A stretch of DNA of 64,000 nucleotides from the NCBI GenBank assembly GCA_963833575.1, contig CAWHXY010000004.1, forward strand, positions 352,001 through 416,000, given 5' to 3'. This document shows, piece after piece, positions 36,067 to 39,491 of this stretch (within the stretch, counting starts at the first letter, position 1; the number at the start of each line of letters is the position of its first letter). The DNA is from Candidatus Bathyarchaeota archaeon. GTDB taxonomy: Archaea; Thermoproteota; Bathyarchaeia; Bathyarchaeales; Bathycorpusculaceae. The position numbers and the translations under genes were made by a program. The notes below the pieces were generated by a model. That model worked only from the letters and a program-made list of their open reading frames with translations, did not search any database and was not told the origin of the DNA.

Positions 36067-36284
36067 TAAGCAGAAAGCAGGTTTACATTTGCTATTCAGC
36101 TTTTTTGATTTATACGTATTGTCTGTTTATTATTATTTGTTGTAATTAGACATATACTTGTGCAGATTTGTAGGAAAAATCACTATTTTAATTCTTTAGC
36201 CATACTTCTGCATTGTCAGAATTTTCTGAAAAATAGGAAAGCTTAAGTATTAAAAACGTGTTTTATTGGTCATGGCGATTAAGT

Positions 36285-36536
36285 GTGAGTAGTTGTGAAG
36301 GAGACACCTGCAGAATTGATGCTGTCATTACTATGGATGCGAAAGGGCAAATTGTTCTTCCCAAAGATTTACGAGAAAAGGCAAATTTCAAGCCAAATGA
36401 CAAAATAGCTGTGGTGGCTTGCGAGAAGAACGGCGAAGTGTGCTGCATCATGATTTTAAAAGCTGAGAGATTCGTCGGTGCCGTAACGAAAACGCTTGGT
36501 CCATTGCTTAAAGGAGTAACTAACCAGGAGAGTTAA
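36285..36536 (+). CDS. AbrB/MazE-type protein resembling the HgcAB-associated HgcC family
   Basis: [14 protein letters not shown] AbrB motif; Cys-rich N-terminus and VCC; directly upstream of arsM. Confidence 0.7.
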
Positions 36537-36538
36537 TA

Positions 36539-37366
36539 ATGAAAGAAGAAAAAGTTAAGAAAATTGTTAGAAATCGTTATGCAAAGGTCGCTAAAACAAA
36601 TGGTTCTTGCGCGGCCTCAAACGTGAGCTGTTGCTCAGCCCCTTCAAACCAGCAGGTGAGTAAAATGATAGGATATAGCGAAGAAGAAATAAATGCAGTT
36701 CCAGAAGGTGCCAATCTGGGATTAGGCTGTGGGAACCCTACAGCATTGGCTTCTTTGAAAGAAGGTGAAAGAATTCTCGATTTAGGTTCAGGTGCAGGGT
36801 TCGATTGCTTTTTGGCAGCCAAGAAAGTTGGCAAACAAGGAAAAGTAATTGGAGTAGACATGACTCCGGAAATGCTTGACAAAGCAAGAGCAAACGCTAA
36901 GAAAGGCAAATACACAAATGTAGAGTTTAGACTAGGAGAAATCGAAAACCTACCCGTTGCCGACAACTCGGTTGATGTCATAATTTCAAATTGCGTAATC
37001 AATCTCGCTCCAAACAAGAAGCGCGTATTCGAAGAAGCTTTCAGGGTTCTTGCTCCAATGGGTCGATTAATGGTTTCGGACATTGTGCTCTTAAAAGAGT
37101 TGCCTGAATCTATCCGAAATAATGTTGAAGCTTATGCTGGATGCATTTCTGGAGCGGAAATCAAGAACAAGTATCTCGAACTAATAAGGAAGGCTGGATT
37201 CCAAGAAGTTAAAGTCATAGAGGAAAAAACATACCCACTTGAATACATCATAAGCGAATCCACTTTGAAAGAAGCTATTAAGATGGCAAGCATGACGGAA
37301 GATGAGGTAAAAGAAGCGGCGAACATTGTGGTAAGCATTAAAGTCTCAGCAGTAAAAAACAATTAG
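36539..37366 (+). CDS. arsM: Arsenite S-adenosylmethionine methyltransferase
   Basis: [26 protein letters not shown] and AGCISGA motifs. Confidence 0.92.
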
Positions 37367-37379
37367 CGAGGAATCAATT

Positions 37380-37958
37380 GTGAAACTCTCCCTTCCTGCA
37401 CAAACAATATTGCTCCCTTCTCCAGTGCTGATCATTGGAACATATGGCCCAGATGGCAGACCCAATATTATGACTGCCGCCTGGGGAGGAATAGCATCCA
37501 GCAAACCCCCATGTATTAGTGTGTCTCTCAGGGAGGCGACGCTTAGCTATCATAACATCAAACAGACCGAGGCCTTCACAGTAAATATTCCTTCTGAAAA
37601 GTACCTCAAAGAGGCCGACTTTGTTGGCATAGTTACGGGAAGAGAATGTGACAAATTCAAAGAGACTCGACTTACCGCGGAAAAGAGCAAATTAGTCAAT
37701 GCCCCAATCGTAAAAGAATTTCCATATGCTCTTGAATGCCATCTGGTTAAGAAGGTTGATCTTGGCTTGCACACAATGTTTATTGGAGAAATCGTCGGAA
37801 TGGTCGCTGATAGTGAGGTTCTAAGTCCAAACAAACTTCCAGACATCGAGAAAGTGCGACCTTTACTGTTTGGTTCATTTGGCAGTATGGCATATTATAA
37901 TTTAGGCGACAAACTTGGAGATGCATTCGCAGTTGGAAAAGAAATACAACGGAGCTAA
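37380..37958 (+). CDS. Flavin reductase/flavoredoxin family protein
   Basis: PNIMTAAWGG, FTVNIP, LEC and HTMFIGEI motifs. Confidence 0.88.
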   Translation: MKLSLPAQTILLPSPVLIIGTYGPDGRPNIMTAAWGGIASSKPPCISVSLREATLSYHNIKQTEAFTVNIPSEKYLKEADFVGIVTGRECDKFKETRLTAEKSKLVNAPIVKEFPYALECHLVKKVDLGLHTMFIGEIVGMVADSEVLSPNKLPDIEKVRPLLFGSFGSMAYYNLGDKLGDAFAVGKEIQRS

Positions 37959-38100
37959 ATTTAGCTATGCAATAAGAATTAATCAAAAAAGCAAGTTAAT
38001 TAACTCAATTTTTATAGAAAGGTTATAATTAAGCTGTCGAAGAGAATTATAAAAAGCTTCGCAAATAGCGTTGTTTCAAATGGGACAATACTGTACCTAT

Positions 38101-38130
38101 TTGTAACATAAATGTCACAATACTTATTAC
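38101..38130 (+). promoter_or_regulatory. Palindrome TTGTAACA-taaa-TGTCACAA plus TATA-like CTTATTA upstream of the BHB RNA
   Basis: 7/8 inverted repeat abutting a TATA-like box about 25 nt before the RNA stem. Confidence 0.45.
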
Positions 38131-38153
38131 AAACCGTAAACTAAATTACTTTT

Positions 38154-38386
38154 GCAGGTCAAGGAGCAAGCTTTAGATGCAATGCATTGAGGCATAGAAG
38201 CGTGCTAGTTGAAACAGCGAAAAATTAGTACGCGGCTAAGATCTTTCCTCAATGGGCTGAACATGTATAGTGTTGGAATCAACTAAGCCGCGAAGCAGCA
38301 GATTCATAACGGCACAAAGAATCTGCAGCGATTAAGATCGCGCTTAGATGGGCCGTAAACAACAATAAGGCTCAGACTTGACCTGC
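38154..38386 (+). ncRNA. Structured non-coding RNA closed by a canonical bulge-helix-bulge motif (putative circular RNA precursor)
   Basis: GCAGGTCAAG-GAGC-AAG-CTT ... AAG-GCTC-AGA-CTTGACCTGC; at least 5 internal helices; G-U pairs favour the + strand. Confidence 0.7.
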
Positions 38387-38558
38387 GATAAACTAAGTGG
38401 GAAAAAAATAAAACATAAAGTAAATTTAAATTCCACTTTTTTATTCTTAGTTTTTAGGTCAAACATATTCGTTAGTTTTTTTGATCTTCGAAATTCTAAT
38501 ACAAGAGCCAAACCTCAAAGAAAACTATAGCAAAACAAGCTAAGAAATCATAATTAGA

Positions 38559-39491
38559 TTATTTGATTACGAGCTTCTGTGAATGCTTGTCGTGTGCTTC
38601 ATCTGACTCTATTCTTATCTTGAATTCTAAGACTTCATCAAATATCTGTTTTATCTTCTCTTCTACATTAGAAGCTATTTGATCTGCTTCCCTGACAAGC
38701 ATTTCACTGGAAACAACAATATTCATGTCCCCAGTCATGTATGGACCTACCTTTCTCACGCGAATGCTATGTGCTTCCTTAACGCCTTTAACGCTTTTAG
38801 CTAATTCTTCAATTGCACCAATGATATCTCCACAATTGCAAGCATCCACTAGAACTAAAGATGACTCTTTGAATATCGAATACGCGCCGACAAAAATGGC
38901 GCCAGAGATAAAGATTCCAGCAACTGAATCCGCATGCAAGATACCCAAGTACCTGTTAAGTGCAACACCACTAAGAACGGCAATTGAAGAAAGCACATCT
39001 AAAGTGCCGCTGAGCCCACCAACCTTCAGAGAGTTTGAACCAAACTTTTTTGATGCTCTATTAATCCATACAGATACTAGAAGCACGACTATTGTAGACG
39101 CAGTAGCAACTATAATTGCTGTTTCGGCGTTAGTAATTGCTTTTTGTGTCATCCACGCATTGTACGCTTCAAGAAGAATAAAACCCCCAAAAATAGCTAA
39201 AACGAAAGCTGCGATAAGACTCCCAAGAGATTCTATTCGATAATAACCAAAATGGAATGTACCATCAGGTGATCGCCTCGAAAATCTTAAGCCAATCCAC
39301 ACGACTAGAAAGATTATTGATGTTGCGATTGAGTCTATTCCATCGGCCAATAAAGCGACGCTATTAGAGAATAATGCCGCAATAACTTCAGCTATACCGA
39401 CTGCCAAAACTACGAAAAAAGCTATTTGCGCAACTACTGAACTCTTTTTCAGATCTCTTGATGACAAATCTATATCAACCTTGTTCAGCAA
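38559..39491 (-). CDS. Cation diffusion facilitator (CDF) transporter
   Basis: SVALLADG.DS and FHFGYYRIESL motifs; C-terminal dimerisation domain. Confidence 0.9.
   Translation of the reverse strand: MLNKVDIDLSSRDLKKSSVVAQIAFFVVLAVGIAEVIAALFSNSVALLADGIDSIATSIIFLVVWIGLRFSRRSPDGTFHFGYYRIESLGSLIAAFVLAIFGGFILLEAYNAWMTQKAITNAETAIIVATASTIVVLLVSVWINRASKKFGSNSLKVGGLSGTLDVLSSIAVLSGVALNRYLGILHADSVAGIFISGAIFVGAYSIFKESSLVLVDACNCGDIIGAIEELAKSVKGVKEAHSIRVRKVGPYMTGDMNIVVSSEMLVREADQIASNVEEKIKQIFDEVLEFKIRIESDEAHDKHSQKLVIK

Follow-up and report, generated by a model that had tools for sequence, protein, structure and literature searches.

The window, i.e. the whole 64,000-nt stretch of DNA analysed here, contains a dedicated gene (38154-38386, + strand) for a non-coding RNA that is processed at a motif of the bulge-helix-bulge type (BHB) and closed into a ring of 206 nt. 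Leaving function aside, we put the probability of this reading at roughly four in five. The source organism is an uncultured soil archaeon of the class Bathyarchaeia, whose genome (2.75 Mb in eight contigs, 94% complete) harbours a single copy of the gene. A flavin reductase is encoded upstream on the same strand, and a cation-efflux protein is encoded downstream on the opposite strand, in convergent orientation. The strands of these flanking genes thus indicate that the RNA gene is not a leader. It is free-standing and is predicted, from conserved motifs on either side, to have its own BRE/TATA promoter and oligo-T terminator. The genes further upstream (36258-37958) are ordinary and code for a small AbrB/MazE-type protein, a class I SAM methyltransferase and the flavin reductase.

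The ends of the gene pair into an hBHBh' motif with the polarity of tRNA-intron BHBs, in which the 3'-strand bulge lies beside the outer helix and the 5'-strand bulge beside the inner helix. Pre-tRNA BHB motifs have this same polarity as 38154-38386. The first-pass annotation had described a 10-bp outer stem, the helix GAGC/GCTC, the bulges AAG and AGA and the inner pairs CTT/AAG, and the sequence bears out each of them in position and orientation. The outer helix h joins 38154-38163 to 38377-38386, the former strand being removed with the leader and the latter with the trailer. The central 4-bp helix H pairs GAGC (38164-38167) with GCUC (38370-38373), which stays in the ring. The 5' bulge AAG (38168-38170) and the 3' bulge AGA (38374-38376) harbour the putative cut sites, 38169/38170 and 38375/38376, respectively. 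The inner helix h', formed by CUU (38171-38173) and AAG (38367-38369), has only 3 bp in the window copy, and after ligation it closes a 7-nt loop that contains the joint.

We determined how often such a motif occurs. An hBHBh' of 10+4+3 bp with Watson-Crick pairs only is found once on both strands of the window, at 38164, and in none of 20 block shuffles. If G-U pairs are allowed, a 10-bp outer stem is not special (nine instances in the window, compared with a shuffle mean of 4.05), and a 6-bp outer stem is common (213 instances, with a shuffle mean of 176). BHB geometry is not rare, and the motif alone is therefore only suggestive; the proof comes from homologues and from RNA.

A BLAST search against 60 relatives identified one, two or three copies of the RNA per genome, of 68-90% identity, in 26 of 36 congeners. 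A pattern scan of one genome per species gave 67 loci, the titles of which are almost all those of Bathyarchaeia or Bathyarchaeota MAGs. The covariance model R1, built on 26 aligned copies, has 93 matches (73 of them distinct) in 97 loci, and 62 of the 67 pattern loci are included. Five pattern loci in bacterial MAGs have no R1 match and were taken as chance occurrences. One full two-module copy (206 bits; L078) comes from a MAG labelled Methanocella sp.; the 12-kb contig that carries it is probably a mis-binned one of Bathyarchaeia.

The + strand of the gene folds at -81 kcal/mol (z = -5.87), and none of 200 shuffles folds as well; the value for the - strand is z = -2.81. In the 73 distinct homologues with the same architecture as the window gene, 94.2% of the cells of the full model are paired, as against at most 40.3% when partners are slid by one to three columns. 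Changes on both sides of a pair (double changes) occur in 47 of 69 pairs, and no observed measure is reached by any of 500 shuffles. In the outer helix, 97.1% of cells are paired and all 10 pairs show double changes. Variation in the central and inner helices is restricted to wobble changes within this set, the inner helix being 99.5% paired. Both bulges are conserved as well. The first A and the last G of the 5' bulge are invariant in the alignments and its middle base is variable, and the 3' bulge is AGA in 26 of 26 aligned sequences and in 19 of a set of 20, the remaining one being AGG.

The alignment showed that the RNA consists of two copies of one module, which points to an internal duplication. 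Each module comprises a lower stem, an asymmetric internal loop (..GA(A) on the 5' side, GAYNAAGAC on the 3' side), an 11-bp upper stem and an apical loop AAAAC-R-GCGAAA. Directly 3' of the lower stem, the motif GGGC-Y-G pairs with the AAAC-R-GC part of the apical loop in a pseudoknot. In line with this duplication, R2, the model of the short form described below, matches both halves of the RNA, at 390177-390268 (E 4e-9) and 390249-390381 (E 3.6e-6) of the source genome's contig.

Module 1 (38185-38259, + strand) has a lower stem, P4, of 38185-38192 with 38247-38254, an upper stem, P5, of 38200-38210 with 38223-38233 and the apical loop GAAACAGCGAAA. Its asymmetric internal loop carries ..GAA on the 5' side and GGCUAAGAUCUUU on the 3' side. 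The helices CATTGAGG/CCTCAATG and GCGTGCTAGTT/AATTAGTACGC, both proposed in the first-pass annotation, hold up across the 73 homologues, with double changes in 5 of 8 pairs of the lower stem and 10 of 11 of the upper stem. In module 2 (38283-38356, + strand), the lower stem P7 (38283-38288 with 38342-38347, annotated as CTAAGC/GCTTAG) has double changes in 7 of 8 pairs. The upper stem P8 (38295-38305 with 38319-38329), annotated as GCAGATTC/GAATCTGC and here extended to 11 bp, has them in 10 of 11. The 3' side of the module 2 internal loop reads GAUUAAGAUCGC, and the family consensus is GAYNAAGAC. The two modules are separated by a short, variable hairpin, AACAU/GUGUU (38260-38274, + strand). 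The annotated pairing is kept in 91.1% of cells, but its changes are one-sided only (0 of 5 pairs with double changes), so that it is a weak candidate. A further annotated helix, GCGAT/ATCGC, falls away, as it is paired in 25.5% of cells, is not conserved and competes for bases with the two pairs that close the 11-bp stem. A pairing of the 5' UAGAUGC with GCAUCUA is possible in many copies but missing in the G003-type and G015-type copies, and it was not adopted.

The pseudoknots were left out of the covariance model, so the alignment was not fitted to them. PK2, which pairs ACGGC (38309-38313) with GCCGU (38352-38356), has double changes in all five pairs; this possible pseudoknot of the first-pass annotation is thus supported by covariation together with the rest of the structure. 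Given the internal duplication, which had gone unnoticed in the annotation, module 1 carries a second pseudoknot, which had likewise been missed. This PK1 (CAGC 38215-38218 with GCUG 38256-38259) is 99.3% paired and almost invariant in the two-module set, so that it is backed mainly by homology to the pseudoknot of the one-module genes, in which two of four pairs have double changes. The internal loop would have to fold the ~22-bp hairpin back on itself to bring the apical loop to the hairpin's base. A K-turn consists of a C-stem, a 3-nt bulge and tandem sheared G-A pairs, with L7Ae as its partner. By eye, the invariant G-A beside the upper stem and the GAYNAAGAC strand opposite do not fit the 3-nt bulge consensus of K-turns, and we could identify the internal loop neither as a K-turn nor as another named motif.

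The genes of this family carry one module (~133-138 nt), two modules as in the window or three modules, all in the same BHB frame. One-module genes are found in several families and orders of the class (loci L129-L148, L153-L154 and L165-L174). In a set of 20, they have double changes in 39 of 50 pairs overall, including 10/10 in the outer helix, 9/10 in P4 and 10/11 in P5. Their inner helix has 11 bp, with double changes in 8 of 11 pairs, and their ring would measure ~106 nt. The central helix is paired in every sequence with letters at these positions (71/71 two-module and 20/20 one-module). In the one-module genes its first pair is G-U or A-U and its fourth C-G or U-G. Together with the G-C of the two-module genes, the first pair thus runs from G-C through G-U to A-U across the family, with either C-G or U-G as the fourth. 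In one congener, a gene of 316 nt (L024:1501-1816, - strand; G013 C12:34746-35061) contains three modules, module 1 occurring twice ahead of module 2. One- and two-module genes co-occur in some genomes; one of them (G052) has one two-module and three one-module copies.

Among the genomes searched, the RNA family appears from sequence to be confined to the class Bathyarchaeia. In the order of the source organism, R1 matched 73 of 151 genomes, with 33/34 in family f11, 19/19 in genus g16, 20/20 in g18 and 13/35 in the window's own family. In the class, 25 of 151 genomes have a match, 12 of them outside the order, and R2 had no match in 131 genomes of other classes of the phylum. As these larger searches used stricter filters and many incomplete genomes, the lack of a match means not found rather than absent.

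Pfam analyses of 102 of 235 flanking ORFs yielded no conserved neighbour across the family. The neighbours are varied and include glutamine cyclotransferase, CBS, pyrophosphatase, SBF, CbiM/CobD, aminoacyl-tRNA synthetases, ELP3 and TGT, among others. At 11 loci, a CxxCxxCC protein (PF03692) of ~180 residues is encoded next to the RNA gene in either orientation (L054, L012, L077, L069, L093, L033, L022, L070 and L013 are among these loci; in L033 it is fused to a SET domain). It is not found in the other subtype, and its presence may be plain synteny. The 183-residue neighbour protein of the second subtype is unrelated to the PF03692 protein and has no Pfam family.

The architecture of the RNA suggests what the ring might do. 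It would present two homologous modules, each a ~22-bp hairpin with a conserved asymmetric loop, bent so that its apical loop pairs with the GGGC-Y-G just 3' of it, as the covariation of the pseudoknot indicates. We tentatively propose, at somewhat less than even odds, that the ring is an exonuclease-resistant, multivalent binding scaffold, each module of which binds one copy of the same partner, either a protein or possibly a small ligand. This reading follows from the anatomy, in which a ring presents one to three identical, strongly conserved modules. The number of modules, which is one, two or three depending on the gene, would then set the valency. In broader terms, these genes could represent a new class of housekeeping RNA in Bathyarchaeia, obligately circular and made from dedicated genes, with one to three autonomous pseudoknotted modules, each a binding or catalytic unit, the number of which tunes the valency; we regard this as possible, though less likely than not.

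The modules might instead be aptamers or ribozymes, in which case the ring would sense or sequester a small molecule or catalyse a reaction. In several riboswitch aptamers, a hairpin is bent and its loop is paired with the hairpin's 3' tail, the bend containing an A-rich strand, and the modules are built in a similar manner; the nucleotides of the loop and the bend are moreover near-invariant across orders. However, no Rfam riboswitch or ribozyme family is matched even at E<=5-10, the RNA is not located upstream of any conserved gene, and the RNA contigs described below show no cleavage product besides the BHB joint. We thus consider ligand-binding or catalytic modules to be unlikely.

The evidence for the ring itself comes from environmental RNA. 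In 20 metatranscriptome runs from 16 studies, 11-13% of the sampled locus words are present, and four runs from four studies (two wetlands, a peat and a bioreactor) were compared at a threshold of 80% likeness or more. All of this evidence consists of assembled contigs of relatives, the best of which is ~97% alike, with 7 differences in 210 bases. From the expected EndA cuts, the first-pass annotation had predicted a circle of 38170-38375, with ...GGCUCAG|GCUUUAG... as its junction. This joint is present, at the above threshold, in contigs of all four runs compared, and it was found for several family members. Its counterpart in another member reads ...GGGCUUAG|GCUUUAAUCGCG (runs X1 and X9).

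The contigs locate the joint in two ways. Some of them (in runs X4, X17 and X9) jump back from 38379 to 38182, 38199 or 38212, and the intervening letters are those of the 5' part of the ring. The alignment overruns 38375 by four bases because the GCUU that follows the joint resembles the genomic ACUU. Others (in runs X17, X9 and X1) first fit the gene at 38170 and are preceded by ...AAUAAGGCUCAG, which is the 3' end of the ring up to 38375. With starts at 38170 or 38173, contigs of 211-214 nt extend across the joint and thus contain the whole ring and a few repeated bases. The contig ends and back-joints therefore place the joint between G38375 and G38170, where cuts behind the second nucleotide of either bulge would put it, and yield a circular RNA of 206 nt. 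Contig cover is confined to the bins of 38159-38398. No contig reaches 38054-38158 or 38399-38486 and none joins 38169 to 38376, as an exon-exon joint would, but contigs of diverged relatives are not expected there, so that this lack carries no weight. The joined 20-mer, searched with up to two mismatches, has no match in the organism's own genome (2.75 Mb) or in 174 related loci (0.8 Mb) that contain gene copies; the joint is therefore not templated in DNA. Biogenesis of the RNA as a BHB-processed ring is thus well supported.

The contigs give neither ends nor strand nor the ratio of rings to linear molecules, and the ring could therefore be a processing intermediate that is reopened elsewhere. 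As for archaeal 16S rRNA, the functional form would then be a linear, circularly permuted RNA, and re-linearised circular intermediates are the accepted model for pre-rRNA, as described in PMC12918454. In contrast, the contig tables show no position at which many molecules begin or end, though contigs cannot show such ends, and several of the contigs of 211-214 nt span the whole ring and the joint. In addition, the conserved 7-nt loop that carries the joint sits on a stem that covaries, and this arrangement resembles a finished structure. A mere intermediate is thus quite unlikely in our view, and we favour the ring as the product.

The RNA appears to belong to no known family. At gathering thresholds, Rfam has no match, including to rRNA families, in the whole 64-kb window. 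At E<=10, three sub-threshold matches were obtained in 37900-38600, all of them outside the RNA, and at E<=5 nothing rises above gathering in 19 one-module loci. All Rfam scans, which used the linear gene sequence rather than the permuted, joined ring, gave sub-threshold matches only, to the unrelated families mir-737, snoJ26, PreQ1 and snoZ168. ARAGORN predicted no tRNA gene in the window, and there is no tRNA match in Rfam. These searches agree with the first-pass annotation, which had noted neither tRNA nor rRNA around the motif and could assign no known family to the RNA. Our literature search, which did not extend to supplementary files with possible lists of circular RNAs, yielded no account of this RNA. 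Several known types of RNA were considered and rejected. For a tRNA intron, ARAGORN and Rfam detect no tRNA exons; for an rRNA processing stem, the enclosed RNA has only 206 nt and no rRNA family matches in the window. A missing or permuted housekeeping RNA was discarded since SRP RNA (151.6 bits, contig C7), RNase P RNA (184.1 bits, C7) and 5S rRNA (C6) are encoded elsewhere in the genome. The RNA was also not retained as a C/D or H/ACA guide sRNA, no such family matching within 38154-38386.

A guide function deserves a further comment. As a trans-acting antisense or guide RNA of C/D, H/ACA or sRNA-like type, the ring would use one of its loops, for example that of 7 nt at the junction, to pair with targets. 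This junction loop, GCUYAG|G, belongs together with its surroundings to the most conserved parts of the RNA, and C/D guide RNAs are known among archaeal BHB introns, as reported in PMC12558985. However, matches to C/D models are all sub-threshold. That of snoJ26 (16.5 bits, gathering 50) lies in the downstream flank, at 38398-38436, and that of snoZ168 (21.5 bits, gathering 36; E 0.97) is the one snoRNA-model match among the 19 one-module loci. Unlike guide pockets, the internal loops do not differ between the two modules or from species to species. Finally, complements of 12-mers across the joint have 7-36 matches per word in the organism's own genome at up to one mismatch, which is about the number expected by chance. 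Together, these observations make a guide RNA improbable. That the gene is without function, being left over from an orphan or selfish BHB intron or from a known RNA in degenerate form such as a permuted SRP or RNase P RNA, is very improbable: its BHB frame is that of introns, and the SRP RNA of Thermoproteus is an example of a known RNA concealed in a permuted BHB gene (PMC4731332), but the canonical SRP RNA, RNase P RNA and 5S rRNA genes are present elsewhere, there is no local Rfam match, the gene has a conserved promoter of its own, the structure covaries strongly over several orders, and the RNA is near-universal in f11, g16 and g18.

We analysed the sequences around the gene for transcription signals. 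The predicted promoter (38098-38129, + strand) comprises a near-palindrome, TTGTAAC-N-GTCACAA, that overlaps the BRE position, followed by the TATA-like box ACTTATTA. The palindrome and the box, which the first-pass annotation had pointed out, are conserved in the family. In the upstream alignment, two-module genes share TTTTGT..C-N-GTCRCAAAA-TTTATAA, with GTCRCAA 39-41 nt upstream of the outer stem; the motif is anchored at this fixed distance in 54 of 72 distinct genes. The promoter PWM scores 40.7 at 390098 of contig C4, which corresponds to 38098 of the window. TTATATA is found equally far upstream of the stem in one-module genes, which also carry a T-run no more than ~12 nt behind the stem. 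With archaeal promoter spacing, a BRE/TATA element at such a position places the transcription start a few bases before the outer stem, and its position thus points to this motif as the BRE/TATA promoter.

Downstream of the gene, the 3' trailer (38396-38442, + strand) is a probable terminator, with the hairpin AGUGGGA (38396-38402)/UUCCACU (38431-38437) followed by a U run. Most two-module genes of the window's subtype have AGTGGAA...TTCCACTTTT on their downstream side as well. The trailer hairpin (AGUGGRA...UUCCACU) with its U-run is missing from the G003-like subtype and from one-module genes.

The palindrome and TATA motif also occur at two other sites of the genome, C1:11486-11517 (- strand, score 38.0) and C6:74917-74948 (+ strand, score 27.1). 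The genes behind them code for a zinc-ribbon protein of 72-76 residues that ends in EDWGE, which we take to be LysW-like, and for a TFS/RpoM-like protein of 115 residues. It is possible, as far as the motif goes, that the RNA gene and the lysW-like and TFS genes share a transcription-factor site. However, the two further strong sites in the genome are too few to interpret as a regulon.

From these elements, we propose the following pathway. Transcription would start a few bases before 38154 and would end in the oligo-U tract after 38437, as the conserved motifs suggest. The ends of the transcript then pair into the helix-bulge-helix-bulge-helix motif, as its sequence and covariation show. A splicing endonuclease would cut each 3-nt bulge behind its second base, and RtcB would join G38375 to G38170, the joint seen in RNA contigs. 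The organism's genome encodes two proteins with tRNA_int_endo (PF01974) matches above cut-off (96 and 70.5 bits; frames of 203 and 198 residues), probably forming an alpha2-beta2 EndA-type enzyme, and one RtcB (PF01139, 588 bits, above cut-off). The EndA-type genes lie in the regions C7:351219-351458 and C6:37209-37463, and the RtcB gene lies at C4:637563-638873. We infer from the motif and the cut positions that EndA and RtcB perform the cutting and joining.

Soils, peat and sediments harbour Bathyarchaeia as one of their most abundant groups of uncultured archaea, and to our knowledge almost nothing is known of their RNA biology. The present RNA is conserved, transcribed and equipped with a full biogenesis signal, and its compact fold is built from modules of ~90 nt and includes a covarying pseudoknot. 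The ring is a well-defined target for structure determination and for the search for partners. Its gene also offers a natural, minimal BHB cassette for the expression of RNA rings.

By analogy only, the RNA resembles CsrB and RsmZ in that one small RNA combines structured, near-identical modules whose number varies. Those RNAs are linear multivalent decoys of bacteria, with simple GGA hairpins as modules, and the Bathyarchaeia ring has no homology to them. The production pathway is already known from other RNAs, namely tRNA introns, pre-rRNA and a permuted SRP RNA, as described in PMC12558985, PMC12918454 and PMC4731332, respectively. What is new is a dedicated unit with a ring as its only notable product, an RNA family limited to Bathyarchaeia among the genomes searched and a modular pseudoknot fold. 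The use of EndA and RtcB would thus extend from introns, rRNA and one permuted SRP RNA to a whole family of dedicated circular-RNA genes.

The RNA shares with excised tRNA introns the hBHBh' signal, the cut positions in the bulges, the circular product and the joint in a 7-nt loop, as these are described in PMC12558985. One such intron, that of archaeal tRNA-Trp, is a C/D box RNA once excised, according to the same source. In contrast, the ring gene has its own promoter and no tRNA exons or C/D boxes, and its 'exons' amount to a 16-nt stem half plus a short leader and trailer. Circularised precursors of 16S and 23S rRNA, as well as circular 23S rRNA in ribosomes, are reported for uncultivated archaea including Bathyarchaeia in PMC12918454. 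As in the pre-rRNAs described there, from the same class, a BHB in a long processing stem brackets a structured RNA that is then circularised; yet the ring has only 206 nt, no similarity to rRNA and a transcription unit of a single gene. In Thermoproteus tenax, a circular SRP RNA is made from a permuted BHB gene (Plagens et al. 2015, PMC4731332). This SRP RNA belongs, in permuted form, to a universal family and has SRP19 and SRP54 as its known partners, whereas the Bathyarchaeia ring matches no known family and is not permuted relative to any known RNA.
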